64,000 bases of DNA from the IMG/VR virus record IMGVR_UViG_3300045391_000912, positions 1 through 64,000 of that record. One strand, written 5' to 3'. The notes under the pieces were generated by a model. That model was not told the origin of the DNA and did not search any database. It saw only the letters and a list, made by a program, of their open reading frames with translations. Shown piece after piece: positions 1 through 64,000 of this stretch. The position numbers were made by a program, and so were the translations under genes. How positions within the stretch are numbered: position 1 is the first letter of the stretch; each line of letters opens with the position of its first letter. This stretch comes from a virus.

Positions 1-106
1 CCCACTGACACCGCTTACCGTCCCGCTTGAGCTGGGCCTTGCGGCGCTTCTCCCAGTCCGGCGGCAGCGTTTCCCTACGGGTGCTTGGCCGGTTGTCCCA
101 ACCCAT
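1..106 (-). CDS. HNH endonuclease, N-terminal fragment (gene continues past left edge)
   Basis: ATG at 106. Reads MGWDNRPSTRRETLPPDWEKRRKAQLKRDGKRCQW, the usual N-terminus of phage HNH endonucleases. The catalytic core is outside the window. Confidence 0.5.
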   Translation of the reverse strand, partial: MGWDNRPSTRRETLPPDWEKRRKAQLKRDGKRCQW

Positions 107-255
107 CAGTCGCGGATTCCCTCATCCCACAGGCTTAGCGCCACCTGTAGGTCTGTCTCCAACTCAGCCCGGCTGCAACCGGCGGCGATGAGTACCTCTA
201 GCCGGACCAATCGCTCGTGGAAGGGGATGTTGGATTCACGTAGCTGTGCGGGCAT
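106..255 (-). CDS. hypothetical small protein (49 aa)
   Basis: ATG 255 behind AGGAGG. Reads MPAQLRESNIPFHERLVRLEVLIAAGCSRAELETDLQVALSLWDEGIRD. Stop overlaps the next ATG (TGATG). Below the ORF-track size cut-off. Confidence 0.45.
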   Translation of the reverse strand: MPAQLRESNIPFHERLVRLEVLIAAGCSRAELETDLQVALSLWDEGIRD

Positions 256-335
256 CGCGGGTGCCTCCTGCTCGGGGTGGATGCGCTCAGGTTAGCGCTT
301 GTCGTATCATGCCGGAATCTCGTTGGGGAGCGAGA

Positions 336-383
336 GTAAGGCCCGGCAGCCGTTGAGGATTACCTCCGGCCGCCGGGCCTTAC
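336..383 (-). terminator. stem-loop just downstream of the 386..595 gene
   Basis: Perfect 12-bp inverted repeat GTAAGGCCCGGC / GCCGGGCCTTAC, 3 nt after the stop codon. No U-tail. Confidence 0.45.
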
Positions 384-385
384 GC

Positions 386-595
386 TTACGCCACCTGCTC
401 GTACGTGAGCTTGCTGTAGATCGGCTCCAGCTTGGTCCCTGGAAAGCTGACCCGCCGGTAGCCGAAGCCGCCGTGGTGGGCGAACTCCAGCTTGACCGTG
501 TAGTCCGGGTGCCGCTTCTCCGGGATCCATTCGAGCAGCTCAGACGCCGGGAGCTGGTTCTCCTTGATGCCCTCGGACTTCCACCTCGTGATCAC
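386..595 (-). CDS. hypothetical protein (69 aa)
   Basis: ORF-track frame 386..643. Start placed at GTG 595, which overlaps the upstream stop (GTGA coupling). Confidence 0.55.
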   Translation of the reverse strand: MITRWKSEGIKENQLPASELLEWIPEKRHPDYTVKLEFAHHGGFGYRRVSFPGTKLEPIYSKLTYEQVA

Positions 596-834
596 TGTGG
601 AACCCTTTGCGTCATCACGGTGCTTAGCCACGGCTGCCCCCACCTGTCGATCACCACGTTGGGCGACTTGAGTTCTTTAGGTGCTGCTGGCCGAACTGTA
701 ACCGTTGTGTGGTCGTTTTCCTCGTCGTACTCCGCACCGGTAGCCACGCTGTAGGCCACGCCCGTGCTGTCCGGACCTAGCAGACGCCCGATGATGTCGT
801 TCAAGTGCAACCGGCCTGGAAAGGTGATCTTCAT
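592..834 (-). CDS. hypothetical protein (80 aa)
   Basis: ORF track. ATG 834 overlaps the stop of the 831..1295 gene (ATGA). Confidence 0.6.
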   Translation of the reverse strand: MKITFPGRLHLNDIIGRLLGPDSTGVAYSVATGAEYDEENDHTTVTVRPAAPKELKSPNVVIDRWGQPWLSTVMTQRVPQ

Positions 835-1295
835 GCCCCTAGCTCCTTAGCCTGCTTAGCAAGTTCACTAAGAGACCTGGGCTTACGCCCTCTGATCTCT
901 GCCACGCGCGCAAGATTTTGCTTAGCCCGATCAAGCTCCTGCTGCCCAATGCGGTCCAACTTGTCACGATCCACCGCGTTAGTGGTCGCCGCAGCACGAC
1001 CCCCCGCCCTAAGCATTTTCTTACCGCGCGCACCGGCCTTGTTCAGCATGGCGCGGTCAGTGTCGATGACTTCCCAGCCAAAGCCACGGCGGGTCTCCAC
1101 CGACTGCTGACCATTCAGCTCCAACCACTCAGCGGCCGACCGCATGGCGCCGTAGGCCGCTTCGTACGAGCAGTCACACAAATCCTGGATTTCGCTGACC
1201 GGAATCTGAGCGCCTGGCTCCAGACTCTGGATCAACTCGATGCAGTGTTGCTTGCGAGACTTGACCCCGTCCTTAGGGCCAAAGATGTCTGTCAC
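831..1295 (-). CDS. hypothetical protein, possibly winged-helix DNA-binding
   Basis: ORF-track frame 831..1439 trimmed to GTG 1295 behind GAGGAG. The longer N-terminus is only the translation of a non-coding repeat. Confidence 0.6.
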   Translation of the reverse strand: MTDIFGPKDGVKSRKQHCIELIQSLEPGAQIPVSEIQDLCDCSYEAAYGAMRSAAEWLELNGQQSVETRRGFGWEVIDTDRAMLNKAGARGKKMLRAGGRAAATTNAVDRDKLDRIGQQELDRAKQNLARVAEIRGRKPRSLSELAKQAKELGA

Positions 1296-2395: not shown

Positions 2396-5300
2396 TCAAC
2401 TGCTGTCCTGCCAGGCAAAACTCGGTGCGGAAGGCTCAGCGACGATCTCCACACCCTGGAACGTGGTAGCCATGCACTCGATCAGCGTCCACGTGGCTTG
2501 CTCCGCGTCTGCCTCCGGCACGAACACATCCAGCTCGTCGTGCACCGGCAACAGCACCGAGTTGCCCCATCGCGTCTTGCGCCACTTGACCAGCGCATCC
2601 ACCAGCAACTCCCGCGCCGTGCCCTGAATTGCGTAGTTAGGCGCCGAGTGTGGCCGCAGCGTGTCGAAGTGGATCAACCGGCCGCTGTAAGCCTGGAAGT
2701 GCGACTGCCCGTTCTTGACCGCGTTCCGGACGTTGTTCGACCAAGCGCTCAACTGCGGGGTCATGCCGTCCAGCGTGTTGATCACTGCCTGCGCCGCTTC
2801 CAGGCTGGTACCTGTCTGAGCTGCCAGAGCCTCCACACCCCCGCCGTAGAGCCTGCCGAACACCAGACGCTTAGCCACGTACCGGTGTTCCTTGGCTGGC
2901 TTGGGCCTGCCGGTCGGGTTGGACTCGGACACCTTGCTGGCCTCGGCGTTGTCACCCCACACCTGCCGGGCGATCTCCTCGTGGATGTCCCGACCGGCCG
3001 CGATGATGGCCTTCAGGTTCTCGTCCTGGCTAAGCGCCGCCGCGACCCTAAGCTCAACACCCGAGAAGTCAGCGCCGATCATGAGCTGGCCGGGATCGGC
3101 GGTGATACAGGCCCGGACACCCCCCTGGCGGCTTAGCTGCTGAAGGTTGGGTCTGACGCAGCTCATGCGGCCGGTGTTGGTTCCGAGCGTGTAGACCGTG
3201 GGTCGGGCCCTACCGTCGCCGTGTTCGCACAACACCCGATAGGGCTCCATGAACATGTTGATCACGGTGTTGTTGTGCCGGTACTCCAAGATCTTTTTGA
3301 CCAGTGGCCCAACCTCCTCGTGGAACTGAAGCGGTTCAAGCACCTCTTTAGCGGCCGAGATCTTGCCCTTCCGGTCACGAAGGTCGATTCCACGGGCTGT
3401 AAGCGCCTCTGCGACCTGTTTGGGGCTTCCGGGGTTCTCGATGCTGGGAGCCATGGAAAGTACGGCAGCGGCGGCCTCATCCCGCAAAGGGCGGTGCTTA
3501 GCCTGCATCGCCTTCACGTGCTCGTAGTCCAGCCGGACCCCGTACAAGGGCAGCTTGGCCGTCATGATCTGCACCAGGCGTTCGCGCGCCATGATCTCGT
3601 CCGGGATCCCCGGAAGCTCTTTGGCGATGGCGGCGGTGTCCAGAACGTCGCTGGAGGCGTACCGAACCATCGTTTCCGTCCCTGAGTCGGCCTGTGCCCA
3701 TCCAGAGCGCTCCACGGGGGTGGTTACCTCGGTTTCCTTCAACCAGCCGCCAGCGGCGAACATGGAGGCCCTAGCGGTGTCAGCGGGAGCCGCCGTGGCC
3801 CGTGGCCCGAGCACTTTCTCCCCGAGCTTCTTGAGACCTGGGTCGGCACCCGTGCTGGCCGGATCCGCGAGCTTGGCCTTGAGCGCGGTGTCGTGCATCC
3901 GCTCCCAGCCCGAGTCGTGGTCGATCAGGTGCGCGCTCGCCAGTGGTGCCAGGTCCGCCGTGGCCGAGTGGGCTTGCAGGTAAGCCGCCTCGCTTAGCAA
4001 CTCTCGGATCAGCTCAGCCTGGTCGGCCTTGGCCGGGTCGAACGTCACCGCGATCTGGTCGTCCCCTAGCTGGACGGTGCGGAGTTTGTAGTCCCGGTGT
4101 CCGATGGGGTAGCCGGAGGTCTCCACGTCCACGGTCAGCACACCGACGCCCGTTCGCCGCATGGCCTGCCGGACCGCCGTAGCCGCTTGCGTGAGGGTCA
4201 GCTCGATGACATTGCCGTCCCGATCGCAACCCGCCGGAAGCGCCACCTTGCGACCTTCGGCGTCGTGCAACTTGGCCAGCTTGGCTTCGCGCCTCTCCTC
4301 AAGCTTGGCCTGAGCCTTGATCGCCTTCAGCTCCGCGCGGGCATCCGTCTTGCTGATGCGCCGACGGTCTGCCCACACGGCCACTTGGTAGGCGTTGATG
4401 GGCTTTAACGGATCGTAGTCGTCCGGTAGCTCTAGGTCACCAAAAGGGGTTTTCCGTGGGTTAGTGGGTTCGGGAACTACCGGAGACGAACCCACTGGGG
4501 CCTGTTTTGGCTGCTCAGGCCCAGTTTTTTGATCAACTTCCGCTACTTCCGAGGCAACTTCCCTATTTCCTACTTCTCTACTCTCTTCTCTCTTGTGTGT
4601 TGTGTTGTTTTGTGTTGAGTAGTTTATAGTACTACTACTAACTATCTGACTATCTGAAGAAGAAGAAAAAACGGGGCCTGACCTGGTGTTTTTAGGCTCC
4701 GATTGTTCTTCACTTGAACCCACGGGAACTAGCGGGCCAACCGTCGGAGAGCTAGCGGAGTTCGGCGCCGGGGTGAACCCTGGGTTGAACAAACCACCCC
4801 CGCCGGAAATGATCAACGGGCGATAGACCTGATTTTTCTTAGGGCCAGCGTTGCGGATCGCGTCGTAACCCAACTTCCCGAGCGTTCGACCGAACATGGT
4901 TTCCGACGGGGCGGGGGACCTTTTGTACGCGGGCTGCATCTCGTGCCACGCCAGGAAAGCCCTGTGGAGCACCCGGCCGGAGGTTCCGTGCTCGTTGTGG
5001 ATGCACATCTCCGCGACCCACTCCACGATCGGATCCTGCCCCGAGACCATGTCGTCCATGGTGGTCTGGAGCGTGAACGGCGCCGAGGAGGTAAGGGCAG
5101 TGTCGGGGTTGGCCAACCAGGCGGCGCACTCGCGCATGAGCTTCGCCAGTACCCCCGGAGCCTCCTGGGTCCACACCGCCGGGGTAAGGGTCTGCCGTGC
5201 GGCGCGCACTAGGTCCCGGTCGGCTTCGCACGGGATGATCCGCATACGCGCCCGCAGCGCCGGGTCAGTGATGGGAGGCTCGTCGTTGGTGGTCATCACG

Positions 5301-7243
5301 AGGGTGTGCGTCGGGTCGAACGTGACCGGGTTGGCGCGCATGGCGTTACCGGTTAGCTGACCTCCACCGGTTAGCTGCTTGAGCCGTTCCGCCGCCAGGT
5401 GGCCCTTACGGGGACCCTCATCGATGAAACTCAACCGTCGGCCCTTGAGCGCGTACACCACCGAGGCGTGAGCGTTGTCGGCGCCAGCGAGAAGGCGGGG
5501 ATCGGCGGCGTGACCGTAAGAGCCGAGCACCTTGACCATGAGCGAGATCAGGGCCGTCTTACCGGTGCGCTCCGGCCCGTACAGCACGGGGATGGCGGCG
5601 TCCGGGTAGCCCGCTAGCGCGATGGACAGCACCCGCATGGCCCACGCCCTGACCTCCGGATCCGGGAACACCGTAGCCACGAAAGCGTCCCAAGCCGGAG
5701 TCTCGATGGGCGCCGGAAGGCATAGAGCCGACCTTAGGTGCGGAGTAGCTAGGTCGATTCGCGCCGGTACCGGAACATCACCGGAAGCCCTGAGGTCCCA
5801 CGCTTGGCCTCCGGCCCATAGAATTTCCGGGTTGGTGTCCAGCCTGCCGACCTCGATACCTCCGGGGTGGCCGGTGTCCTTGACGATGGACTTGAGCTTG
5901 CGCTCGATGGCGCCGGAAGGGCCACTGGTGAGGAACCTTGCGCGGGTCTTGGCCTGCCAGTTCTCCGCCGTGTAGTCGCTAGCGCTCTTAGGGAAGTCCG
6001 GGTCACCGGGTGGCATGAGCCTCGCTACCTGGGACGTTGCCCAGTCGGCCATGTCCTTGGTTTCACGCCATACGTTTGAGCCCCGGACCAGCCAGGTATC
6101 TGAATCGGTTCCGTAACGCAGGGCCGGGAGCATCCGAAGAGCCACCTGTTCGGCGAGTCCCTGATCGGTGCGGTCCGCCGAGGGGTCGAATGGGTGCAGG
6201 CCGATGGCCGAGTAAACGGTCCAGGTGGGGTCCTCAGGGTCCTCGCCCATGTCGCCGTCGAACTCACGCTTAGCCGCCTTAGCCCACCTAAGCTCGTCCT
6301 CGGGGGTGTAGACCGTGAACTTGCCCTTAGCTCCGTCTTTGAGCCCTTGGTCGATCCAGAGCTGGTCCTGTTCATCAGGGCCGTCCGGCCACACTTCGGT
6401 GACGGCGTCTTCCAGGCGCTCGCGGGCGTCGGTCTCGTCCAGGTACTCCCCGCCGACGTAACCACCTAGGGTGAACGCGGCCCTTAGCAGAACTTGCCGG
6501 AAGCCCGCGCCGGACTGAGGGTCGAACTCTTTGATCTCCAGGAGCTTGTTGGTGATGGCCCGCTCAGCCGATACCTGGGACTGGGGCTCGCGGTAGGAGA
6601 TGAAGTCGAACCACCACTGGTCCTTAGGGTCGTGGTCCGGTACGTCGAACTTGGAGCCGATGGATCCGCCCGCGTTGAGCCGAACCTCACGGACCTTAGC
6701 CGCCAGAGCTTCGTTGGAGGTGTCCTGAGGTCCATACTCTGCAAGTTTCACCAGGTCAGGGGCTTGCATCCAGCGGTAAGGGTAGAACTGGCCGTCTTCC
6801 TTGGACTTGCGCACGGTCGGCGCCAGGAACGCGAAGCCACGACTGGAACCGTCGGGCAGGCCGCTCTTGACGTCGATGCCGGGGAACACGTTGTCGCGGG
6901 ATCCGCAGTTCATGGACTTGACGAACGAGTGGAACCCGCCGGAGGGGGTGGACGCGACACCGTAGCTAAGGGGGATCATGCCGTCCAGGAAGGACAGATC
7001 GCCGTCGTTGCGGGGGTCCACGTCGAGCAGATCCAGGCCCTTACCCATGACCGCGCACAGGGCCATGCCGGGCTCCCAACGGTCCACGACGGCCGGGTCC
7101 GGGATTGTCTGCTGCCAGGCGGTGGGGAGGTTGAAGCCCACGGGGTGGTTGGGATTGGGCGGCGCCACGAAGATCGGAATCCCCGCCCTGGCCATCTCCC
7201 TTGCGATCTCTAGCGCTTGCTGTTGCTCTGGAGTCAAGTTCAC
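2396..7243 (-). CDS. fused replicase: prim-pol + P-loop primase/helicase (D5/P4-like) + 3'-5' exonuclease + family A DNA polymerase
   Basis: 1615-aa ORF with GTG start behind AAGGA. N-terminal prim-pol-like region. Walker A GPERTGKT. Exonuclease motif LTVDVETSGY. Pol A motifs DFSGVELRV, RYVAKRLVFGRLYGGG and LPVHDELD. Confidence 0.9.
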   Translation of the reverse strand: MNLTPEQQQALEIAREMARAGIPIFVAPPNPNHPVGFNLPTAWQQTIPDPAVVDRWEPGMALCAVMGKGLDLLDVDPRNDGDLSFLDGMIPLSYGVASTPSGGFHSFVKSMNCGSRDNVFPGIDVKSGLPDGSSRGFAFLAPTVRKSKEDGQFYPYRWMQAPDLVKLAEYGPQDTSNEALAAKVREVRLNAGGSIGSKFDVPDHDPKDQWWFDFISYREPQSQVSAERAITNKLLEIKEFDPQSGAGFRQVLLRAAFTLGGYVGGEYLDETDARERLEDAVTEVWPDGPDEQDQLWIDQGLKDGAKGKFTVYTPEDELRWAKAAKREFDGDMGEDPEDPTWTVYSAIGLHPFDPSADRTDQGLAEQVALRMLPALRYGTDSDTWLVRGSNVWRETKDMADWATSQVARLMPPGDPDFPKSASDYTAENWQAKTRARFLTSGPSGAIERKLKSIVKDTGHPGGIEVGRLDTNPEILWAGGQAWDLRASGDVPVPARIDLATPHLRSALCLPAPIETPAWDAFVATVFPDPEVRAWAMRVLSIALAGYPDAAIPVLYGPERTGKTALISLMVKVLGSYGHAADPRLLAGADNAHASVVYALKGRRLSFIDEGPRKGHLAAERLKQLTGGGQLTGNAMRANPVTFDPTHTLVMTTNDEPPITDPALRARMRIIPCEADRDLVRAARQTLTPAVWTQEAPGVLAKLMRECAAWLANPDTALTSSAPFTLQTTMDDMVSGQDPIVEWVAEMCIHNEHGTSGRVLHRAFLAWHEMQPAYKRSPAPSETMFGRTLGKLGYDAIRNAGPKKNQVYRPLIISGGGGLFNPGFTPAPNSASSPTVGPLVPVGSSEEQSEPKNTRSGPVFSSSSDSQIVSSSTINYSTQNNTTHKREESREVGNREVASEVAEVDQKTGPEQPKQAPVGSSPVVPEPTNPRKTPFGDLELPDDYDPLKPINAYQVAVWADRRRISKTDARAELKAIKAQAKLEERREAKLAKLHDAEGRKVALPAGCDRDGNVIELTLTQAATAVRQAMRRTGVGVLTVDVETSGYPIGHRDYKLRTVQLGDDQIAVTFDPAKADQAELIRELLSEAAYLQAHSATADLAPLASAHLIDHDSGWERMHDTALKAKLADPASTGADPGLKKLGEKVLGPRATAAPADTARASMFAAGGWLKETEVTTPVERSGWAQADSGTETMVRYASSDVLDTAAIAKELPGIPDEIMARERLVQIMTAKLPLYGVRLDYEHVKAMQAKHRPLRDEAAAAVLSMAPSIENPGSPKQVAEALTARGIDLRDRKGKISAAKEVLEPLQFHEEVGPLVKKILEYRHNNTVINMFMEPYRVLCEHGDGRARPTVYTLGTNTGRMSCVRPNLQQLSRQGGVRACITADPGQLMIGADFSGVELRVAAALSQDENLKAIIAAGRDIHEEIARQVWGDNAEASKVSESNPTGRPKPAKEHRYVAKRLVFGRLYGGGVEALAAQTGTSLEAAQAVINTLDGMTPQLSAWSNNVRNAVKNGQSHFQAYSGRLIHFDTLRPHSAPNYAIQGTARELLVDALVKWRKTRWGNSVLLPVHDELDVFVPEADAEQATWTLIECMATTFQGVEIVAEPSAPSFAWQDSS
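4555..4675 (-). repeat. AT-rich microsatellite-like tract inside the replicase ORF (inter-domain linker)
   Basis: Runs such as tctctt, tgtgttg, actactacta and gaagaagaagaaaaaa. Encodes SSSSDSQIVSSSTINYSTQNNTTHKREE. Composition differs sharply from the flanks. Confidence 0.8.
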
Positions 7244-7251
7244 TGTCGTCC

Positions 7252-7491
7252 TTACTTAAACAGACGGGGGTTACGCCGGACCTGACCCTTAGCCGCGAAG
7301 TGTTCAGCGTGCTCAGTGCACATGTACAGTTCGAACTCAAGCGACTTCATCTTGACGGTCTCCACGGCGGGCTTGCTGCAGCCCAGCACGAGGGGTTGGC
7401 CCACCGCGTCTGCGCTTACCCCTATCGAGGCTTCACAAAGATCATCCTCGCGGGGCTTAGCGGGCCACTTGGAACCACCGAGCTTAGTCAT
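7252..7491 (-). CDS. small Cys-containing protein, paralog of 8228..8407
   Basis: ORF track. Shares C..ETV...MC.EHAE...GQV.R with the 8228 gene and the N-terminal MTKLGGSK with the methyltransferase. Confidence 0.65.
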   Translation of the reverse strand: MTKLGGSKWPAKPREDDLCEASIGVSADAVGQPLVLGCSKPAVETVKMKSLEFELYMCTEHAEHFAAKGQVRRNPRLFK

Positions 7492-7515
7492 CGAGCCACC
7501 TGACCCGTGTCGACG
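7466..7515 (-). repeat. direct repeat flanking the methyltransferase gene (right copy in gene orientation)
   Basis: 42 of 50 nt identical to 8206..8255 by hand alignment. Spans the stop/start junction GQVAR*/MTKLGGSK. Confidence 0.75.
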
Positions 7516-8231
7516 TCCCTGACTGGGATATCAAGCTTGCGGAGAATCTGCTGACCGATGTGTCGGGTGTAAGCCGGAGGGATGGCTTGAGCCAGTTCGT
7601 CTCGTGTCATCCAGTCGATCTGCATGGCTTTCTTCCACAGCTCACTTTCGCCGGGACCTAGACCTTGACCCCGACCAAACACGCCTATCACAGGTGACAT
7701 GACTATCTCGGGTTTCCCGGAGTGGTAGCGCTTTGTGGGGTACCCAGGGCTTTTAGCGGCCTGACCCACATGATCACACGGTGGTGCTGCCAGCCGTACG
7801 TTAGACTCGAACAGTCTGTGTCTACGTACACCAAGGTCGAACGAAGACCCGCACAGCGTAATCGGGTTGATCAAACCAGGGTCCGGGGGAACGTTCTCGA
7901 TCACGTAGAGCAACCCCGAAGCTAAGCATTGCTTGCGGAAGCTGGGGATCAGGTCCGTGTGGTGCTTGCTGGAGAACGCTTTCATCGTCGTGTGCACCTT
8001 GCAGGGCGGCGAGCCTGCCAGAACCAGTGCTCGACGCTCCTGCGCGAACCCAACAAGATCAAAATTAGGTACGTCTACTTGTAGGAACTCAAAGGGATAG
8101 TTCGGCTGCGGAAATTTGTCCAGGCCGATCACTTCGAACCCCGCTTGGGAGTAACCCATGGAGGCACCACCCCCACCGCAATAGGCATCGATCAACACCG
8201 GTCGGCACTTGGATCCACCGAGTTTCGTCAT
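7488..8231 (-). CDS. DNA (cytosine-5) methyltransferase
   Basis: 247 aa. Motif I LIDAYCGGGGASMGY, motif IV GSPPC, motif VI VIENV. Confidence 0.85.
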   Translation of the reverse strand: MTKLGGSKCRPVLIDAYCGGGGASMGYSQAGFEVIGLDKFPQPNYPFEFLQVDVPNFDLVGFAQERRALVLAGSPPCKVHTTMKAFSSKHHTDLIPSFRKQCLASGLLYVIENVPPDPGLINPITLCGSSFDLGVRRHRLFESNVRLAAPPCDHVGQAAKSPGYPTKRYHSGKPEIVMSPVIGVFGRGQGLGPGESELWKKAMQIDWMTRDELAQAIPPAYTRHIGQQILRKLDIPVRDVDTGQVAR

Positions 8232-11782: not shown

Positions 11783-11879
11783 GCTTAGGTCCTTAGCTAA
11801 GGGCTTAGCCTGTATAAAACTCTGACCTGCGGAAACGTTTAGCTACAAGATCAAGTTTACAGGCTTTACAGACACCTAA

Positions 11880-11920
11880 GGGGCATGTCCAAAAAACTTG
11901 GAGAACATTGGACATGCCCC
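11880..11920 (-). terminator. 13-bp perfect hairpin after the 11935..12945 gene
   Basis: GGGGCATGTCCAA / TTGGACATGCCCC with a 15-nt loop, followed on the minus strand by TTAGGTG. Confidence 0.6.
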
Positions 11921-11934
11921 TTAGCCGCTAAGCC

Positions 11935-13225: not shown

Positions 13226-13229
13226 AGGC

Positions 13230-44742: not shown

Positions 44743-44786
44743 GGTGTGGCTCCTATACGGTTTAGCGCGCGGGTAACAGGCTTAGC

Positions 44787-52611: not shown

Positions 52612-52710
52612 GGTGGCTCGACCTCCTCTACGGTGACGACAGAGCACATCCCCTGCGCGGGTGGGGCGGCTATGCGGGTGTGTTTCAGTTGTTCGTGCTT
52701 AGCTTAAGGC

Positions 52711-56438: not shown

Positions 56439-56678
56439 TTAACTCCACGACGACGGAATAAGCGCGCTTAGGTTAAGAGCCGCCGCGCGCCGCTTGATGA
56501 AGGCGATTACCTTAGGCCGATCTCCCGCCTTAACACGGCCGATCGACTGGATAGCCTTCTTCAAGTCAGCTTCGTTCCGAATCGGGAAGCGTCCGCCGGA
56601 TCCGGTGCCACCATCGGGCAGCGCCTTACCCTGCTTAGCCAGATTCTTACGCACTGGCATCGATGGACCAGCCATCAC
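56439..56678 (-). CDS. hypothetical head-module protein (79 aa)
   Basis: ORF track. Confidence 0.5.
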   Translation of the reverse strand: MMAGPSMPVRKNLAKQGKALPDGGTGSGGRFPIRNEADLKKAIQSIGRVKAGDRPKVIAFIKRRAAALNLSALIPSSWS

Positions 56679-56691
56679 GAATCCTCCATCG

Positions 56692-58251
56692 TCACTTCTT
56701 GGGCGGTGCGGGCTTCGGTGGTGCCGGGGGCTTAGCGATAGCAGGCTGCTTAGGCGCCTGTGTCACACCCTTAGGCGTCTGCTTAGCCGCTTGACCTGCG
56801 GGAGTAGTCGGCGCGGGGGCCCCTGGGACCGCTGGACCCGCCATCTGCATACCCGCCGTAGCGTCCGCGATGAGCTTCTGTTGCGCGTACAGCTCATCCC
56901 GCTTCTGCTTAGCCAGCTTGATCCACTCCATGACGTCTGGCTTCTCGACGCCTGGGATCCGAGCCCACAGAACCTCTTCGGGGATTCCGAGCAGCGTGGC
57001 GGCCTTACCCAGCGCGTCCACGGCCGCCGAAAGCGACTGCACGCTGGTGTCCTGCCAGGTAACCCGGCCCGTGATGTCCTTGACGTACTTCTGAAGCTCC
57101 GGGCGCTTGCTTTGCTTGCAGGCAAGCTTAAGGAGCTGGTTGTGGGACCTGCCGGTCGGCTTCTGAATCTCGTGGACCTTCTGCGACTGGCTGGCACGGG
57201 CGGCGGCAAGAGCTTCAGCCGACAGGTTCACCATCTGGCCTGTTAGCTCGTGCGTCGGGGTCTGGCTAACCGCCGCCAGGGTCTCAATGTCGTCCCGGTG
57301 GCCGTCGATGAAGCCACCCATACCGGTTTCGGCCAGAGTTCCGAACTTGGTGTCGGCGTCGGCGGCGATCAGGAAGTCGTCCTGCGCGAGCTTGAGCTTG
57401 GCCCGGATCGCGCCCTCTTCGGTGTCCGGCTCCGACAGACCGGCGATCCAGCGGATCTTCCACGAGTTCCAGTGCTGAACCAGCATCCGGTCGTAAGAAG
57501 TCTTGTTGATCTTCTGCGCCAGGGCGATGTACGGCTCAACCTCACCCTTGGTCCGACCGTCGAGGTCAAGCTCCTTGCAGTACCGCACGACGGGTACCAC
57601 ACCGGAGTCGTGCCGCTTGATGTCAATGACCGTGAAGCCGTCGCTACCGTCGGGCCGGGTGCTGGAGTCGAGGACCACCGTGTACTCGTAGGTGTCGTCG
57701 TAGACCCGGACGTTCTTGATCGAGCCCTTGACGTAGTCGACCCGCATCGCAAACTCGGGCCAGTCATCTTCGGCCGGGTCCTCGTAGAGGGCAACCATCT
57801 TGCGGGGGCTTACACCTCGCATGATCGGCATCGACTCGCCCGTGGTGGGGTCCTCGCCCGGTAGGCAGATCGCGTAGGCGTATCCGTAAGCCAGCATGGC
57901 CCGGTGCACGGCGATCTGTCGATCATCCCAACCGTTGGCCAACCAGATGCCGTAAGGCCCCTTGGTCATGTCGTAGTCGGCTTCGCTGTCCGGATCCGGC
58001 TCGTCCAACTGCGAGCGGTAACCGTCCACGAACATGCACTGGGCGGTTGCGGTAACGACCTGGCTTAGCCATGGAGCCTTAGACATGTCCCGCAGCGCGC
58101 GGTGCTCGGACGTCGCCTTACGGGGCAGTCGGAAGTTCTCGGGCTCCCACCGATACCAGTTGTCGATTCGCTTAAGACGGATTGACTCACGGTCGTACTC
58201 CGGCATAAGTTGATCTTGAATAATCGACTTCAGCTCGGACGGGCTTAGCAC
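56692..58251 (-). CDS. portal protein
   Basis: ORF-track frame 56692..58338. GTG 58251, 7 nt after the terminase stop, is preferred; ATG 58302 is also possible. Confidence 0.8.
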   Translation of the reverse strand: MLSPSELKSIIQDQLMPEYDRESIRLKRIDNWYRWEPENFRLPRKATSEHRALRDMSKAPWLSQVVTATAQCMFVDGYRSQLDEPDPDSEADYDMTKGPYGIWLANGWDDRQIAVHRAMLAYGYAYAICLPGEDPTTGESMPIMRGVSPRKMVALYEDPAEDDWPEFAMRVDYVKGSIKNVRVYDDTYEYTVVLDSSTRPDGSDGFTVIDIKRHDSGVVPVVRYCKELDLDGRTKGEVEPYIALAQKINKTSYDRMLVQHWNSWKIRWIAGLSEPDTEEGAIRAKLKLAQDDFLIAADADTKFGTLAETGMGGFIDGHRDDIETLAAVSQTPTHELTGQMVNLSAEALAAARASQSQKVHEIQKPTGRSHNQLLKLACKQSKRPELQKYVKDITGRVTWQDTSVQSLSAAVDALGKAATLLGIPEEVLWARIPGVEKPDVMEWIKLAKQKRDELYAQQKLIADATAGMQMAGPAVPGAPAPTTPAGQAAKQTPKGVTQAPKQPAIAKPPAPPKPAPPKK

Positions 58252-58258: not shown

Positions 58259-59935
58259 TCACCAAACCCTTCCGGAACGCGGTGGTTTCTGACGGCTCTC
58301 ATCCGAAAGATACAGGCGCCGTACCATCCGCGCGCCAATCATCGCCACCGCGAGGTCAATCTTCTTAGGGCTATCCGGCGATTCTTTGGTCACCGAGACA
58401 CCCCAGCGGTTCAAATCGTCCCGGCAGTTCGCCACATGCCGAGCCAACCGGGAATCTCCGTCGTGCGTGAAGGTCTGTTCCTTGATCTCGGTGTGCACAA
58501 GCTCGCAAGCGAACGTGAACGGGGCGACCTTGGTCCGCATATCCCACGCGATGGCCTGCGGATCCTTGCCGTCCTTCATCGCCCACATCTTGAGCCTGTC
58601 GGCATAAGCCTCGGGCCACGACACCTTGGCGAAGCTCTCCCACTCCCGCACGTCCGCAAAGAACGCCACCGGGCTGTACTCCCGAAACGCCCTGGCCACT
58701 GTGGCGTCTACTTCGTGCACCGGAACGCGGTAGCGCTTACCGTCCTCGTCCGATGCGTGGTCCGGATGGGGCTCCCAGGCGCCGATAACGAACACATGGC
58801 CGTCCGAAACGCAACAACCGACGAGTGCGGTGGCATCTCGGGTGGTCGAGCCGTCGAAGAACATCACGATCTCTTCGCCAAGCTCCACAACCCGCTCCGA
58901 ATGCCGCAAAAGCGACCAAGCCTGCGGTGTGGTCCACGAATTGGTGGAAACCGTCGGCCAGTTGAGGTACTTCCGTTTGGAAGCGTCCACACTCGACCGT
59001 GGATCCCAGATTTTCTGCTTGATCGGCTCCAAATCAGCCCAAAAACAGTCCCCGTAGCAGTGCGCGAGGGCCTTATGGAGCGATTCGGGGCTGTTCAGGT
59101 CCGTATCCGGGGGTGCAATCAGCGCGTCGTACAGAATTTTGGACGTTCCGCGCGTTTTGCCCTCTTCTTGGAGGATCCAAGCCTCCCAAGCCGCCTCCGC
59201 GACGCTCTCAACCCCCGGAACCCAGGCGTTACAGGTCTCCATCGACCGAGATCCGGACTTAGTGAGGTTGTCATCGAGCGTCGCGGCCAGCGCGGGCCCA
59301 CCCTTGTTCGGCGTCCAGTGCTCCGTCTCGTCCCAGACGTTGAAACTGGACTCCGCGCCTTCAGCGGCACCCGCCGACGACGTGATGATCTCCAAAGTGC
59401 CCTCTGGAGCCTTGTAATACCGGGTCAAACCGACGTCCAAGCCGTACCTAAGCGCCACCTTGGAGCCCTTAGGCGCCATCGCGCGCACCATACGCATCGT
59501 GTTAGCGGTCTGAGACTCCGCTGTGGCCGCGATTTGGACCAGCGGCATGTCCACAGGCTTCCCCTTGCACCCACCGGGGAGCTTAGGGTCGAAATCCTTA
59601 AGCCGAACCGGGCCCAAGAACTCCATCAGAGCCAATACGGCGGCGAACGGGGACTTTCCGGAACCCTTAACGAGCCGACGGACCCCATGGTGGTACAGCC
59701 AGCGGCCGTTTTCATCGACCGCGTACCACCACAGCAGGAACTTGAGCTGCGAGTCGACGGGTCGCCAGAACTGTTGCGCCTTAGGTCCGTTCGGCTGCCG
59801 GAGGTACTCCATGGCCCACGCTGCGGCTTCCCACCCCAAAGTCAGGTCCGGGAGCCCCTCGGGCATGGTTGAGAGCCGATCGCCGGGCGGAATCGGTGGG
59901 GGTGTCCAGATTCGAGGCCGTTCGAGCGTCGTCAT
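58259..59935 (-). CDS. terminase large subunit
   Basis: 558 aa. Walker A-like KGSGKS. Assigned from gene order. Confidence 0.85.
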   Translation of the reverse strand: MTTLERPRIWTPPPIPPGDRLSTMPEGLPDLTLGWEAAAWAMEYLRQPNGPKAQQFWRPVDSQLKFLLWWYAVDENGRWLYHHGVRRLVKGSGKSPFAAVLALMEFLGPVRLKDFDPKLPGGCKGKPVDMPLVQIAATAESQTANTMRMVRAMAPKGSKVALRYGLDVGLTRYYKAPEGTLEIITSSAGAAEGAESSFNVWDETEHWTPNKGGPALAATLDDNLTKSGSRSMETCNAWVPGVESVAEAAWEAWILQEEGKTRGTSKILYDALIAPPDTDLNSPESLHKALAHCYGDCFWADLEPIKQKIWDPRSSVDASKRKYLNWPTVSTNSWTTPQAWSLLRHSERVVELGEEIVMFFDGSTTRDATALVGCCVSDGHVFVIGAWEPHPDHASDEDGKRYRVPVHEVDATVARAFREYSPVAFFADVREWESFAKVSWPEAYADRLKMWAMKDGKDPQAIAWDMRTKVAPFTFACELVHTEIKEQTFTHDGDSRLARHVANCRDDLNRWGVSVTKESPDSPKKIDLAVAMIGARMVRRLYLSDESRQKPPRSGRVW

Positions 59936-60366
59936 TACTTCGCCAAGCGATTGCGGAACGCCTCAAGGTCCGAAACGGCGGCATCCTTCTCCGGATCCTC
60001 GACACCCGCCTTCGCAAGCTCGATCCGCATCCGCCGCCGAGCGCCTTCCGTGGTCAGAAGCTCCGAGGCTCCGGCCAACCACGAGTTGAACATCATCGCG
60101 TTGGGCTTAGTGCTGCACAGCACGCGGTCCAGCATCTCCGCGAGGATCCACGCTTGCGCCCAGTCCGACGGTTCGTACCAGTGACACTGCCCCGACTTAG
60201 CCAGGGACTCGTACCAGTCCGACGCCGCCTTAGTCCAATCCTCACTAGCTTCCGGAATCTCGACATCCTGGGTGCCAGGAGCGGTCTCCGTCTCGATATC
60301 GTCCTTATTCCTGCGTCGGCGTTGATCCGAGCGCTTAGGAACAGGGCCCGTAGTGCCTCCAGCCAT
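59935..60366 (-). CDS. terminase small subunit
   Basis: 143 aa with a basic N-terminus (PKRSDQRRRRNKD). ATG behind GGAAGGAGG. Stop overlaps the terL start. Confidence 0.7.
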   Translation of the reverse strand: MAGGTTGPVPKRSDQRRRRNKDDIETETAPGTQDVEIPEASEDWTKAASDWYESLAKSGQCHWYEPSDWAQAWILAEMLDRVLCSTKPNAMMFNSWLAGASELLTTEGARRRMRIELAKAGVEDPEKDAAVSDLEAFRNRLAK

Positions 60367-60630
60367 GGGCTTAGCACCTCCTTCCGGGGTCAGATTAGCG
60401 TCAACCGGGGGTTTTGGGCTAGCTTAGCGTGTTAATAAGGGGTTTAGCCCCGTTTTTAGGGCTAAAAAGTCAACAGCTAGCTGATTTTAGCGTTTTAACC
60501 CGTACAAAATTTTTGGCGGGATGACAGGGCGGTCGGATGATCTTGATGCTAAGGGGGACCTCCCCACCCCTCTTAGCCTATTAGGTCGCAATTCGGGCGC
60601 GCATTGCTAGCTAAGCCCTTAGCTAAGCCT

Positions 60631-60700
60631 TAAATTGTCGCAAAAATTAATTTTTTCCCATTTTTTCATTTTTTCGCGCGCTTATTAAACCATTAGCAAT
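60631..60700. other. AT-rich segment with phased T-tracts (probable bent DNA)
   Basis: A5 at 60642. T6 at 60651, 60661 and 60669, spaced 8-10 nt apart. Confidence 0.7.
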
Positions 60701-60714
60701 GTGTTAGCTCGTTG

Positions 60715-60785
60715 CTTAGTGCATGGCACATACCTAGTGCACACCATGCCATGCCTAGTGCTTGTGCCCTTGTGCCCTAGTGCTA
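60715..60785. repeat. four direct repeats of (C)CTAGTGC
   Basis: TAGTGC at 60717, 60735, 60756 and 60778, spaced 18-22 nt apart. Confidence 0.8.
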
Positions 60786-60811
60786 TGGCTTAGGCCTTTA
60801 GCTCTTATGTG

Positions 60812-60870
60812 TGTAGGTGTGTGGTGCAGTAGGCAGTAGGTGTGCGGTGCATAGGTGTGTGGCATGGGTG
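60812..60870. repeat. three direct repeats of TAGGTGTGYGG
   Basis: Copies at 60814, 60837 and 60852. Confidence 0.8.
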
Positions 60871-60940
60871 GGCTATGGGTGGAAGGGAAGCCCGGATATA
60901 TGGGCCCCGTATTAGCTCCTGCCTAGCGCTAGGTACAGGG

Positions 60941-61037
60941 GTAGGGGCTTACGGCTAGGGCACTAGCTAAGGGTCTAGGTAGGGGCTTACAGAGGCCACT
61001 AGGTAGGGGCTTAGCTAAGGGTCTAGGTAGGGGCTTA
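60941..61037. repeat. four direct repeats of GTAGGGGCTTA, including a perfect 24-nt duplicate
   Basis: Copies at 60941, 60979, 61003 and 61027. GCTAAGGGTCTAGGTAGGGGCTTA occurs at 60966 and 61014. Confidence 0.85.
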
Positions 61038-61189
61038 GGCCGGCCTGCGCCATATGTCCAAGCTTAGACATAAGCTACATAGGCTAGGGCTAGGGGCTCA
61101 TGTCCGGACAACGGTGCAGCTAGAGGTACATTGTCCGGTCATCTTAGTGATCTTGTGAAGATCGACTTGTGGAACGGCTACCGAACGGT

Positions 61190-61226
61190 AATCCCCTAAC
61201 GCAATCCCCTAGGGGGTTAGGGGATT
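61190..61226. repeat. nested palindromes
   Basis: AATCCCCTAAC / GTTAGGGGATT enclose CCCCTAGGGG. Nearby palindromes are GATCTTgtgAAGATC (61149-61163) and TGTCCGGACA (61101-61110). Confidence 0.8.
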
Positions 61227-61239
61227 AGCCCCTAATTTG

Positions 61240-61261
61240 GGCGTGTCGCACGGCGTGTCGC
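61240..61261. repeat. tandem GGCGTGTCGC x2
   Basis: Copies at 61240-61249 and 61252-61261. Confidence 0.8.
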
Positions 61262-61339
61262 CCCTAAAGGTTGGTCAACGGCGCCCGAATCGGGCAGGGT
61301 CACGAGCGTCCCCATCACCCGCTAGTCCGGAGGTCACTC

Positions 61340-61549: not shown

Positions 61550-61577
61550 CCCAACCAACACAGGAGGAGCACCTGAC

Positions 61578-61853
61578 ATGAGCATCCGTACCGAAATCAT
61601 CATGAACGCGAGCGGTGACATGCTCACGCTCGTTGTCACGCCTGCCACGGATGATTTCGTCCCTAGCCCCTGCCGTAGCGATGTCATGGTTATGGCTCAC
61701 GTTGTGTGCAACGAGCGTGGCCTTAAGGCGACTGGTGTAGTCGGTATCGCTTGCGACCCACACGGCAACGGCGACCACCGCTGCCCTAACCACTGGTCCG
61801 CCATTGGTGCATTTGACGTTGAACCCCTTACCGCCGATAACGCAGCGCTCTAA
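61578..61853 (+). CDS. hypothetical protein (91 aa)
   Basis: ORF-track frame 61473..61853. ATG 61578 behind AGGAGG. Confidence 0.6.
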   Translation: MSIRTEIIMNASGDMLTLVVTPATDDFVPSPCRSDVMVMAHVVCNERGLKATGVVGIACDPHGNGDHRCPNHWSAIGAFDVEPLTADNAAL

Positions 61854-61877
61854 CCAACCAACACAGAGGAGAAACCA

Positions 61878-63125
61878 ATGTCCAGCACTCTCGTCAAGCA
61901 TGGTGACCGCACCGTCCGTAAGGCGTGCAACGTATGCGGCCGCAAAGACCTCTATTGGGGTCACGACACCACTAAGGACAAGGGTGAGTTCTGCTCTAAG
62001 TGCCACGTCTCCGGCGCATGGGTGCTCATCGAGCGTGACGGTTCCGCTCACTCGCTCGTCTGTGGCCCTAAGGGCGACGCTACGGGCCCGGCGCCTGTCA
62101 CCCTGGCTGATGAGCGCACAAGCCCGTTCGTGGCGCCTAGCGAGCCTGTGACGGTTCCGGCGGCTACTCCTGCGCCTACGGTCCCCCCGACGATGCCTAG
62201 CGACGCGGCGGCGCTCATGGCGCAATTGTTCGCCACGCTCGCACCGAAGGTGGACGAATCGCAGGTTCGCGCCATTGTCGAAGAGATGGTCAACGGGCTG
62301 GTATTCCCTACGCACACGGTAGTTGTCGACTCCTCGAAGGACGCGCCGGTTGTCATTGAGGGTGCCCATTCAATGCTGAAGTGGGTCATTAAGGGGCTTA
62401 GCTCCGGCCTACACGTGATGATGGTTGGCCCGGCGGGTACGGGTAAGTCGACGCTTGCCGAATCGGCGGCCGAAGCGGTGGAGCTTCCCTACTCCGCTAT
62501 CTCCCTATCGCCCACCACACCTAACTCTCAAATTCTGGGTTATATGAATGCAGCGGGTGAGTACGTGCGCACGCCATTCCGTGAGGCTTACGAGAACGGC
62601 GGTGTATTCAATTTCGATGAAATCGACAACAGTAACCCCTCAACCCTGGCCGTAATCAACTCTGGCCTAGCTAACGGCGTAATGGCGTTCCCCGACGGCA
62701 TGGTCAAGCGGAGCGAGAACTTTAGGTGTGTCGCAACCGCCAACACCTACGGCCGCGGTGCAGACCGTATGTACGTGGGCAGGCAGCAACTCGATGCCGC
62801 GACGCTTGACCGTTTCATCGTCCTTGACGTCCACGTAGACGAAGCGCTTGAAATGGCCGTATGCGCCTCTACCGGCCTTGAAGTCTCGCGCGTCAAGGAC
62901 GTCCTGGTCTACGTGCGCAAGCTGCGTAAGTCTGCCGACAGTCAGGGTATGCGCGTAATGGTGTCCCCTCGCGCCTCTATCGGCCTATGTAAGTGGCTTG
63001 CGAACGAAGACACCCCCGAAGACTGGAAAATGGGCGTCGAAGCGCTCGTATTCAAGGGCATGAGCGCGCAAGACAGGTCCAAGCTTCTGTCCGGCGCCGG
63101 TATGTCCTCCGCTTACAGCAACTAA
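61878..63125 (+). CDS. AAA+ ATPase (MoxR / CobS / AAA_5-like) with an N-terminal zinc-ribbon
   Basis: Walker A GPAGTGKS, Walker B FNFDEID, ATANTYGRG...LDRF, and an N-terminal CNVCG...CSKCH. Confidence 0.8.
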   Translation: MSSTLVKHGDRTVRKACNVCGRKDLYWGHDTTKDKGEFCSKCHVSGAWVLIERDGSAHSLVCGPKGDATGPAPVTLADERTSPFVAPSEPVTVPAATPAPTVPPTMPSDAAALMAQLFATLAPKVDESQVRAIVEEMVNGLVFPTHTVVVDSSKDAPVVIEGAHSMLKWVIKGLSSGLHVMMVGPAGTGKSTLAESAAEAVELPYSAISLSPTTPNSQILGYMNAAGEYVRTPFREAYENGGVFNFDEIDNSNPSTLAVINSGLANGVMAFPDGMVKRSENFRCVATANTYGRGADRMYVGRQQLDAATLDRFIVLDVHVDEALEMAVCASTGLEVSRVKDVLVYVRKLRKSADSQGMRVMVSPRASIGLCKWLANEDTPEDWKMGVEALVFKGMSAQDRSKLLSGAGMSSAYSN

Positions 63126-63136
63126 GGGGTAGAGCC

Positions 63137-63976
63137 ATGGCACGCAAGATTATGCAGACCCTCACCTACGACTCGTTGGAGGATATGGCCGATAGCGCGT
63201 ACCGCCACTCAAAGGATGACAGCGGAGCGTTCGTCTACTCCGGCTCATCGTGGCAGAAGAGGTGGTGCGGCACTGCCTCTCCCCAATCGGCCCGTAAGTT
63301 GGCTATTGAAGGGTGGCATGAGCCGGAGGTTGAAGCTCTCACCATTGTTGATTCCGCCATTGAAGCGGTAGAGGCCGAACACGAAATGGATGGTTTCAGC
63401 CACTACCACGACGTGAGCGGTTGTGAGGTTGACGTGGCCCGGTATCTGTCCGGTGAGCCGGAGTCGATGATTGAATACGAGCCGATTCCTACTCCTAGGG
63501 TCGGCCGTGTGATCACTCTGTGCGCTTCGGTGAGCATGAGCGCGTCGATTAGCAACGACGTCATCAAGCGTCGTGGTTTCGGCATTAGCGCGCTGGCTTT
63601 CGCTCTTACCCGTCTCGGGTTCGCGGTGGAGCTATGGGCAGATTGGACCTCCGGTAGCTACTCCGGTGACAAAGTCGGCCAGATGCGCGTGTTGGTCAAG
63701 GGGCTTAACGACGAGCTGGACTATGCAAAAATCCTATTCGCCTACGCTCACCCGACAATGCTGCGGGGGCTAGTTCACGCGGCCGCCCATGATTTCAACG
63801 CGAGCACCCGCGACGCTATCGGTATCGGCAAGTACTACGGCGTTCCCGCTCACCCAGAGCAGGACCTACCCGAGGGCACGATTTACCTACCGGAGCTGAA
63901 GTCCTCACGCAACGTGCCCACGGCGCCCGAAATGCTCCTAGCCCACCTGCGTGAGCTAGGCATCGTGTCGGACTAG
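63137..63976 (+). CDS. partner of the AAA+ ATPase, possibly a vWA/CobT-like protein with a degenerate MIDAS motif
   Basis: ORF-track frame 62993..63976. ATG 63137 behind AAGGGG. The segment VITLCASVSMSAS sits where a DxSxS motif would be. The functional call is weak. Confidence 0.6.
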   Translation: MARKIMQTLTYDSLEDMADSAYRHSKDDSGAFVYSGSSWQKRWCGTASPQSARKLAIEGWHEPEVEALTIVDSAIEAVEAEHEMDGFSHYHDVSGCEVDVARYLSGEPESMIEYEPIPTPRVGRVITLCASVSMSASISNDVIKRRGFGISALAFALTRLGFAVELWADWTSGSYSGDKVGQMRVLVKGLNDELDYAKILFAYAHPTMLRGLVHAAAHDFNASTRDAIGIGKYYGVPAHPEQDLPEGTIYLPELKSSRNVPTAPEMLLAHLRELGIVSD

Positions 63977-64000
63977 ATGGAGAGGGTGTGCGCGTGATGA

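Follow-up and report, generated by a model that had tools for sequence, protein, structure and literature searches.

A lineage-restricted excess of the palindromic pentamer CTWAG in a phage genome

The window considered in this work is a 64,000-nucleotide stretch of DNA from an actinobacteriophage, positions 1-64000 of the IMG/VR record IMGVR_UViG_3300045391_000912, with a guanine-plus-cytosine (GC) content of 61.5%. The pentamer CTAAG and its reverse complement CTTAG recur throughout this stretch, which raises the question of what accounts for them: the encoded proteins, the messenger RNA (mRNA) or the DNA itself. We write the two forms together as CTWAG, where W is A or T (below, S is G or C, N and x are any base, and a slash marks a codon boundary). 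CTWAG is its own reverse complement, and the strand of a copy is defined by the centre base alone. The excess sits at synonymous sites, stop codons and intergenic DNA. A preliminary description, made from the sequence alone, had noted the recurrence and preferred to see in it a sense-strand signal on mRNA.

CTWAG in coding sequences: frames and strands

In total, the window contains 231 copies of CTWAG, or 3.6 per kb, where base composition predicts about 86; the observed-to-expected ratio is 2.68. Read on the plus strand, 161 of the copies are CTTAG and 70 are CTAAG, while about 45.6 of each would be expected, and CTTAG shares the top observed-to-expected ratio among all pentamers. The tenfold excess of the preliminary description is found in local clusters only, the overall excess being about 2.7-fold. 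The single positions that it listed (846, 855, 20698, 20889, 21008 and 21267) are correct, whereas two of its cluster counts are too high: the segment 6241-6310 holds two CTTAG (6269 and 6278) and one CTAAG rather than four copies, and the following segment holds seven rather than eight.

56461-56900, minus strand: dense coding cluster in the portal gene and the small gene just upstream of it, with seven CTTAG on the plus strand, that is, sense CTAAG.

These two genes contain 8 and 3 CTAAG against 1.8 and 0.7 expected, respectively. Over the window, CTWAG sites cluster at distances of 5-20 bp (35 against 12 expected), and neither a regular spacing nor a positional bias within genes is seen. 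The flanking bases are G or C in about 85% of the copies at position -1 and in 81% at +1, a symmetric preference, and GCTWAGC, with 62 copies where about 8 are expected, is the second commonest heptamer.

To separate the word from the proteins that contain it, we use the 79 coding sequences (CDS; 53 kb) called with a self-trained codon model. In 500 synonymous-codon shuffles within genes, sense CTAAG, present 131 times, is expected 48.1 times (z-score 14.1), and it ranks first among the 1024 pentamers, which confirms the over-representation; GCTAAG and CTAAGC take ranks 1 and 2 among hexamers. A stricter shuffle, which keeps the amino acids, the codon usage and both junction dinucleotides, still leaves 131 against 77.2 (z 9.6). 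The preliminary description had proposed to give up the claim if the counts fell within expectation after shuffles of this kind, and they lie well above it. Its view that selection acts at the level of nucleic acid rather than protein is borne out by both shuffles, as well as by the codons chosen at conserved dipeptides (see below).

The largest frame class is xCT/AAG, with 109 copies against 43 expected (GCT 58, CCT 38, TCT 7 and ACT 6). CTA/AGN occurs 22 times against 5.0 (4.4-fold), and CTT/AGN 25 times against 7.2 (3.5-fold), the latter providing nearly all of the sense-strand CTTAG. The preliminary description had the motif made in all three frames; this holds for xCT/AAG and CTA/AGN, whereas the third frame is possible solely as the stop C/TAA/G, which accounts for 9 of the 28 TAA stops. 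Among CTN/AGN codon pairs, the third position is A or T in 77% of cases against a baseline of 31% (p = 2e-13). Thus, wherever the code permits both centre bases, A and T show equal enrichment.

The two strands are unequal at first sight: sense CTAAG outnumbers the antisense form (sense-strand CTTAG) by 131 to 27 in the CDS, and the densities in the three large gene blocks are 2.4-3.1 per kb for sense and 0.7-1.2 per kb for antisense copies. The antisense form is nevertheless itself enriched in the synonymous shuffle (27 against 8.4, z 6.9, rank 5). The sense bias arises because xCT/TAG and C/TAA/G are stops and because the codon TTA is nearly unused (4 times in 53 kb). Since the asymmetry follows from stop-codon constraints, no explanation at the RNA level is needed for it. 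There are four gene blocks (minus strand, 1-20080; plus, to 29500; minus, to 60400; plus, to 64000), and the orientation of the motif does follow them, as had been described; what does not follow is the mRNA signal drawn from this, because the code explains the bias. A polar motif of the Chi or KOPS type is rejected, since the word is self-complementary, its centre bases are equal and its orientation switches with each gene block; the polar DNA motif offered in the preliminary description is disfavoured for the same self-complementarity.

A sense-strand mRNA signal, whether a binding, cleavage or protection site, is quite improbable in our judgement. The imbalance of sense and antisense copies, the copies at stop codons and before start codons, and a stable intergenic hairpin closed by CUAAG and CUUAG (see below) would all suit it. 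However, the imbalance is wholly explained by the stop-codon constraints, both centre bases are equally enriched where the code permits, the orientation of intergenic copies is about even once stop codons are set aside, and a self-complementary specificity together with perfect DNA palindromes is typical of proteins that read double-stranded DNA.

The enrichment is confined to a narrow set of words. Half-palindromes with one mismatch, GTAAG (60 against 32, as xGT/AAG) and CTTAC (37 against 19, as xCT/TAC), are raised about 1.9-fold, while other words containing TAA are not enriched (CTAAC 35 against 34.5, CTAAA 12 against 19, ATAAG 8 against 13.6 and TTAAG 28 against 26.8). An enrichment of hidden stops ('ambush' codons) is therefore rejected, as these words are at or below expectation. 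CTCAG and CTGAG (CTSAG) are near expectation and not enriched, and the avoidance of CTSAG as the driver is rejected on this ground.

Distribution among relatives and codons before AAG

A search of INPHARED gives no near match to the window, the distant matches being actinobacteriophages. We compare loci by their capsid and terminase genes. In the following, a locus is called enriched when its CTWAG observed-to-expected ratio is well above 1 and non-enriched when it is well below 1.

54395-55654, minus strand: capsid gene, one of the structural genes.

The enriched close relatives (capsid 81-89% identical, 60-62% GC) have ratios of 2.9 (L175/L176), 3.8 (L001) and 1.8-2.0 (L164/L165). Non-enriched siblings of the same clade, whose capsids are 82-83% identical and whose GC content is 61-62%, have ratios of 0.54 (L177), 0.09-0.21 (L178-L180) and 0.22 (L166). 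Enriched contigs are SRR29078263_9935 (62.7 kb; Logan), SRR30224782_15195 and IMGVR_UViG_3300015371_000444; non-enriched ones are SRR22808049_7741 together with its companion _45299, SRR33756986_19487 (63.2 kb) and SRR26541664_79535. In the capsid tree, the window, L175 and L001 form one clade and the non-enriched siblings a neighbouring one, with L164 near the base. The rank of CTAAG in the synonymous shuffle is 1-10 in the enriched relatives, 853 in L177 and 1008-1021 of 1024 in L166 and L178. Thus, the excess is restricted to a lineage and is switched between sibling phages.

Farther away, depletion prevails. The terminase relatives (78 loci, 33-64% identical) have ratios mostly of 0-0.6, the highest being L018 (2.76), L031 (1.50) and L044 (1.31). 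L018 was considered as a second case and rejected, because its raw excess of CTNAG is explained by its own codon and amino-acid usage. Phage Bongo (L003), which has 61.9% GC and many transfer RNA (tRNA) genes, has a ratio of 0.23, with 8 CTAAG against 29.5 and rank 1014. Among prophage relatives, 22 of 23 loci are depleted of CTWAG, including all of the nearest ones (capsid 52-59% identical), from Amycolatopsis, Pseudonocardia, Blastococcus and Catenuloplanes. The only prophage among the 23 without depletion is L202, a prophage-like locus of Mycolicibacterium sphagni ATCC 33027 (NZ_NOZR01000003.1, 234989-255879; capsid 36% identical, 57% GC), which shows a mild excess (ratio 2.3; 46 against 30 in the shuffle test) and a depletion of CGAAG. 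A portal-based scan of genomes for the host gave no match.

The contrast between the window and the non-enriched L166 and L170, which have the same GC content, sharpens with the length of the word: it is 1.57-fold for TA, 2.8-fold for TAA/TTA, 5.0-fold for TAAG/CTTA, 6.0-fold for CTAA/TTAG and 12.9-fold for CTAAG/CTTAG, and L001 and L164 give 12.5-fold for the last. For the TA dinucleotide as such, the value is 0.78, against about 0.5 in the siblings, a general relaxation. The shuffle expectation for the pentamer is 0.9 per kb in enriched and 0.75 per kb in non-enriched loci, while the observed densities are 2.5 and 0.24 per kb; the like expectations imply that the two groups use codons similarly and differ in context only. 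GC content and codon usage are therefore rejected as the cause, as the siblings match in the former and nearly so in shuffle expectation. Individual sites point the same way. At orthologous codons within conserved dipeptides, T/AAG is kept by the enriched relatives in 10 of 12 cases, where L166 has C/AAG (5) or G/AAG (2), and CTWAG sites are conserved between enriched genomes in 18 of 29 cases against 41% for other pentamers (p = 0.018).

The preliminary description also drew attention to phage tRNAs that would decode exactly the codons in question.

34215-37109, minus strand: array of 23 tRNA genes, including Leu-TAG, Lys-CTT, Lys-TTT, Arg-CCT, Ala-TGC and Pro-TGG.

This link fails. In the non-enriched sibling contig SRR22808049_7741 (L166 and L181), the corresponding position is occupied by 21 tRNA genes, among them Pro-TGG, Lys-TTT, Lys-CTT, Arg-CCT, Ala-TGC and Leu-TAG, and outside this array the contig contains 4 CTWAG in 10.6 kb. 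Phage tRNAs as the cause are thus rejected, a near-equivalent array being accompanied by about 10-fold fewer copies. An Rfam scan of the window finds tRNAs only. The tRNA-Lys(TTT) and tRNA-Lys(CTT) genes (34705-34803 and 36075-36171), which are 86% identical over 97 nucleotides (nt), are recent paralogues.

A second layer, which is translational, becomes visible at codons before AAG. In the enriched phages only (the window as well as L001, L164 and L175), purine-ending codons precede AAG in 7-23% of cases against baselines of 32-53%, in all eight four-codon families and with p values from 1e-3 to 7e-13. In the siblings, the difference is small; seven of the eight families are not significant, and GTN has p = 0.02. 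The codon pair xCG/AAG occurs 21 times against 83 expected, whereas C/GAA/G is found 55 times against 37 and antisense CTTCG is neutral. Since CGAAG is not depleted in other frames or in antisense, the avoidance is frame-specific. By rank, CGAAG is last (1024 of 1024) in the enriched relatives, neutral in the siblings and 9th in Bongo. A preference for T over C before AAG is seen only in GCN (63% against 36%), CCN (70% against 40%) and GGN, and yields S-CTAAG and S-GTAAG.

The avoidance of purine/AAG looks like a decoding or frameshift constraint at AAG, as A/AAG and G/AAG would let tRNA-Lys re-pair in the -1 frame. The slipperiness of A-AAG is known from the dnaX frameshift site of E. coli. 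One may ask whether this rule explains the whole excess, that is, whether purely translational codon-pair selection keeps purine-ending codons away from Lys-AAG, for example on account of -1 slippage of tRNA-Lys, with T/AAG being the safest choice since the -1 frame then reads the stop TAA. The restriction of the avoidance to the enriched phages, its extension to all eight families and its frame specificity all agree with such selection, and xCT/AAG supplies 66 of the roughly 145 excess copies. However, this leaves unexplained the preference for T over C limited to GCN, CCN and GGN, the excess of CTA/AGN and CTT/AGN (together 47 against 12) and of xCT/TAC, and the copies, palindromes and arrays in intergenic DNA (58 against 14.9 outside the CDS). 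Moreover, other T/AAN pairs and words with out-of-frame stops, such as CTAAC and ATAAG, are not enriched, and the effect is absent from siblings although they carry the same pair of tRNA-Lys genes. A codon-pair bias would be limited to one frame and to the sense strand and be missing from non-coding DNA; this is true of the purine/AAG avoidance and not of CTWAG. We consider the purely translational explanation unlikely.

Intergenic copies, palindromes and arrays

Outside the CDS and the tRNA array (8.2 kb), CTWAG is denser than in genes: a first-order Markov model predicts 14.9 copies, and 58 are present (z 11.3, rank 2 of 512). Both orientations are present, often in palindromes, and about 22 of the intergenic copies lie in two control regions. 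Shine-Dalgarno mimicry was considered and rejected, since merely a handful of the intergenic copies correspond to CTAAGGAGG. The principal elements are as follows.

11783-11810: intergenic cluster GCTTAGGTCCTTAGCTAAGGGCTTAGCC, which contains the perfect palindrome CCTTAGCTAAGG, upstream of the operon of the SNF2 helicase.
11876-11925, minus strand: hairpin between two genes, its stem base formed by CUAAG and CUUAG, with a 15-bp perfect core in a 17-bp stem.
52692-52714: copy of TAGGnnCTTAGCTAAGGGnCTTAG, 78% identical to that at 11786, upstream of the tail-tube gene and overlapping a C/TAA/G stop.
60606-60700: palindromic cluster (inverted repeat) GCTAGCTAAGCCCTTAGCTAAGCC, directly beside an AT-rich tract of about 50 bp (about 60640-60690).
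60956-61039: iteron-like array with 12-bp periodicity (spacings 24, 12 and 12), whose units resemble TAGGGGCTTAG(C) and TAAGGGTCTAGG.

The perfect palindrome CTTAGCTAAG occurs three times, at 11792, 60618 and 61010. The 23-nt element TAGGnnCTTAGCTAAGGGnCTTAG has five copies, at 11786 (taken as the reference), at 52692 and three times in 60956-61037, which are 74-83% identical to the reference. The hairpin has a predicted free energy of -35.9 kcal/mol (z -6.0 against shuffles) and looks like a terminator.

Both the palindromic cluster and the 12-bp array, which sits some 270 bp from the AT-rich tract, are part of a gene-free region of 1 kb (60367-61339) that extends from the small terminase gene to the rightward genes and holds 15 CTWAG. 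In related contigs, the end lies about 150-350 bp upstream of the small terminase gene, and since this is near the equivalent point, the region may include a genome end or an origin. In its arrangement, the region around the cluster at 60606-60700 resembles an origin, a genome end or an operator region. Iterons and operators are characterized by repeated or palindromic copies at fixed spacing in control regions, and such copies are what we find here, the perfect palindromes and the 12-bp array being spread over three control regions. Additional repeats, among them CCTAGTGC, are also present in the gene-free region. The non-enriched sibling L178 has, at the corresponding end of its contig (positions 1-160), different short repeats (TATGTG/CATATG) and then a long tract of A and T only; from these sequences, the repeated word at this position appears to be lineage-specific.

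A different repeated word, the 10-mer CTAAGCCTGT, occurs five times, always on the minus strand (129-138, 13224-13233, 23093-23102, 37821-37830 and 44776-44785), where 0.05 copies are expected. In the second of these copies, the internal TAA, at 13229, ends a called gene, and the remaining ones are likewise placed outside the called CDS; this 10-mer may be a gene-end or coupling signal.

The rest of the gene map consists of a set of structural genes and an early region. The latter encodes an SNF2 helicase, an exonuclease, a protein with sigma-70 region 2, WhiB, ThyX and dCMP deaminase, in addition to an RNA ligase and the large fusion protein listed first below. Features that bear on the discussion below, or that complete the map, are as follows.

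2396-7243, minus strand: single open reading frame (ORF) of 1615 amino acids (aa), a fusion of PrimPol, DUF5906 (D5-like helicase), 3'-5' exonuclease and family A DNA polymerase.
7488-8231, minus strand: DNA cytosine-5 methyltransferase, 247 aa, with the motifs DAYCGGGG, GSPPC and ENV.
17468-18772: RNA ligase, in the early region.
59935-60366, minus strand: small terminase, one of the structural genes.
Other structural genes, minus strand: large terminase, SPP1-type portal, tail tube, and tail proteins with alginate-lyase domains.

The fusion has no relative in IMG/VR and no close relative in INPHARED, where its N-terminal 1000 aa reach at most 24-29% identity with phage primases. The methyltransferase went undetected by Pfam and NCBIfam at the thresholds applied, and the codon model called only part of it. 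Some of its homologues match PF00145, and members of its family are common in actinophages, cluster J and A mycobacteriophages among them. The RNA ligase encoded by the phage suggests tRNA repair. Two large proteins on the minus strand (29535-31685 and 39545-43726) have alginate-lyase domains, the larger also a PhoD-like phosphatase domain; they are presumed to be tail proteins from their position among structural genes, and their domains suggest polysaccharide-degrading receptor-binding proteins.

Several repeats are also found. The presumed tape-measure gene, an ORF of 1197 aa at 47053-50646, contains three tandem repeats with a 138-nt period at 47849-48400, and three repeats spaced 72 nt occur at 50270-50454. 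A 69-nt direct repeat (1385-1453 and 1538-1606) is 90% identical, and four copies of AACCCTTGACTTGC, a motif similar to a promoter -35 element, lie in 1317-2324.

Finally, GC-rich palindromes of 6 bp, which are classic actinomycete restriction sites, are strongly avoided in the window, with the following observed and expected counts: GCCGGC 2 and 40, CCGCGG 1 and 39, CCCGGG 3 and 34, GAGCTC 0 and 34, CAGCTG 2 and 23, TCGCGA 0 and 20, CTCGAG 0 and 18, and CTGCAG 1 and 13. Likewise, AGATCT (3 and 21), AGGCCT (4 and 21) and ACGCGT (3 and 18) are low, and GGATCC is enriched (44 and 25). The set of avoided palindromes varies among the sibling phages, which suggests different host strains.

Possible readers and related genomic words

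We tentatively propose, with a confidence that approaches an even chance, that CTWAG is a recognition word on double-stranded DNA to which a translational layer is added. According to this proposal, CTWAG, usually flanked by G or C, would be a palindromic word that, in this lineage, has been driven from strongly avoided to strongly preferred. Its reader would be a dimeric sequence-specific DNA-binding or DNA-processing protein, of the phage or of its particular host, which would bind the arrays in the control regions and for which many dispersed sites would be advantageous to the phage. Such dispersed sites, being on both strands, would suit priming or loading by the PrimPol-helicase-polymerase fusion, and the avoidance of purine/AAG would feed the xCT/AAG part of the excess as the second layer. 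The fusion, as initiator or primase, is the most attractive though speculative candidate for the reader; the part could equally be played by a regulator, by the small terminase, by a protein that coats DNA or by a modification enzyme. As proteins that might bind CTTAGCTAAG and the array at 60956-61039, an HTH protein (19566-20630) and the sigma-like protein (15230-15874) are candidates too. In place of the fusion, two of the non-enriched loci (L170 and L174) have a gene for another protein, PrimPol+AAA_25.

Several points weigh against a double-stranded DNA word. First, the largest class, xCT/AAG, is confounded with the frame-specific translational rule; it makes up 66 of the roughly 145 excess copies in CDS and non-CDS DNA, or about 45%, and the remaining excess is not confounded in this way. 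Second, a maximal-order Markov model leaves the pentamer at 172 against 151, with a z-score of 3.9 only, because the sub-words TAAG (309 against 236) and GCTAA are elevated themselves. Third, much of the excess between genes comes from two or three control regions, from TAA stops and from CTAAGGAGG ribosome-binding sites, so that it does not amount to a uniform background pressure. In addition, the link to the fusion compares one enriched genome with two non-enriched loci, and an RNA reader with a degenerate centre base may be involved instead.

A lineage-specific, context-dependent mutation or repair bias, arising from the family A polymerase or from short-patch repair, could generate the excess with no selection for the word. 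It would fit an excess that is strand-symmetric and found in coding and non-coding DNA alike, the general relaxation of TA noted above, and a replication module unlike that of the non-enriched loci. However, mutation alone would hardly shift one pentamer 13-fold and leave its neighbours CTAAC, CTAAA, ATAAG and TTAAG no higher than expected. Furthermore, candidate precursors are not depleted to a matching degree (CCWGG is down by about 1.3 per kb, CTWAG up by 3.2 per kb), CTWAG sites are better conserved than other pentamers, and the perfect palindromes and phased arrays look functional. We regard such a bias as improbable.

It is very unlikely that CTWAG is the target of the cytosine-5 methyltransferase, or that it is the deamination product of methylated CCWGG, even though the phage encodes such an enzyme and the word has the palindromic form of a Type II target. 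Orthologues that are 60-72% identical, and that show no divergent recognition segment, occur in non-enriched loci (ratio 0-0.39); one of them (71-72% identical) comes from the same sample as L166, and from the same phage if the two contigs are one. Across the 80 loci whose homologues are more distant, the ratio has a median of 0.26 and a maximum of 1.23. CTSAG is not enriched. As to deamination, the intermediates CTWGG and CCWAG are not enriched against shuffles and are up by just 0.8 per kb, and CCWGG stands at 4.7 per kb against 5.9 in the siblings, that is, 1.2-1.5 per kb lower, while CTWAG is 3.2 per kb higher.

We found nothing relevant in the literature on CTAAG, GCTAAGC or CTWAG. Massively enriched genome-wide words have usually led to a dedicated reader, such as RecBCD for Chi, FtsK for KOPS and receptors for uptake sequences. 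Like Chi, KOPS, the Neisseria and Haemophilus uptake sequences and cyanobacterial HIP1, CTWAG is short, lies far above expectation in coding and non-coding DNA, occupies synonymous sites and is lineage-specific, and like HIP1 (GCGATCGC) it is a palindrome. In contrast to Chi, KOPS and the uptake sequences, which are asymmetric and polar, it is self-complementary, and it differs from all four systems in being just 5-7 bp long, phage-borne and different between sibling phages. Those systems are associated with readers such as RecBCD/AddAB, FtsK, an uptake receptor, or a methylase or repair pair, whereas the reader of CTWAG is hypothetical. CTWAG is thus not a member of any of these systems.

Other systems resemble parts of the pattern. 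Iterons and operators, for example the ori/crr repeats of the phage P4 alpha protein and the pac hexamers of P1, share with this locus short repeats in phased arrays and palindromes by an AT-rich tract, here in a gene-free region upstream of the terminase genes. However, iterons and operators are not known to show, in addition, a several-fold enrichment at synonymous sites over a whole genome. Primases recognize short words (T7 gp4, pentamers containing GTC; the pRN1 PrimPol, GTG), and such words are needed densely on both strands; together with the unusual fusion of this phage, this is a likeness seen at the sequence level, and we know of no report of a genome-wide enrichment of primase sites. 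DdeI cuts CTNAG, BlpI cuts GCTNAGC and the SauI target is CCTNAGG. These Type II targets have the same palindromic build with an odd centre base, but their centre is N, whereas the excess of CTWAG concerns an A/T centre only. In addition, phages normally deplete Type II targets, and the window depletes many 6-bp palindromes yet enriches CTWAG.

Across all domains of life, no codon-pair type is avoided more than nnUAnn (Tats, Tenson and Remm 2008, PMC2585594). The non-enriched siblings and Bongo conform to this rule, whereas in the window its sign is reversed, CTAAG taking rank 1 of 1024; the reversal is limited to S-TAAG and CTTA-S and does not extend to nnUAnn generally. Depletion of CTAAG is thus the normal state, and the lineage of the window is its mirror image.

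It is possible, albeit doubtful, that CTWAG represents an undescribed genome-wide word of a phage-encoded machine (the fusion, a protein that coats or marks the genome, or a modification enzyme), for which hundreds of synonymous sites have been re-coded and which can be gained or lost among siblings no more diverged than the members of one genus. In the siblings, and in actinophages generally, this pentamer ranks with the most avoided words, and here it is the most preferred, while base composition, tRNA set and codon usage are alike. This on/off contrast is a natural experiment for finding the reader and for testing the near-universal avoidance of TA in codon pairs. The avoidance of purine/AAG, in turn, offers a handle on the frameshift and decoding constraints that act during infection by tRNA-carrying phages.

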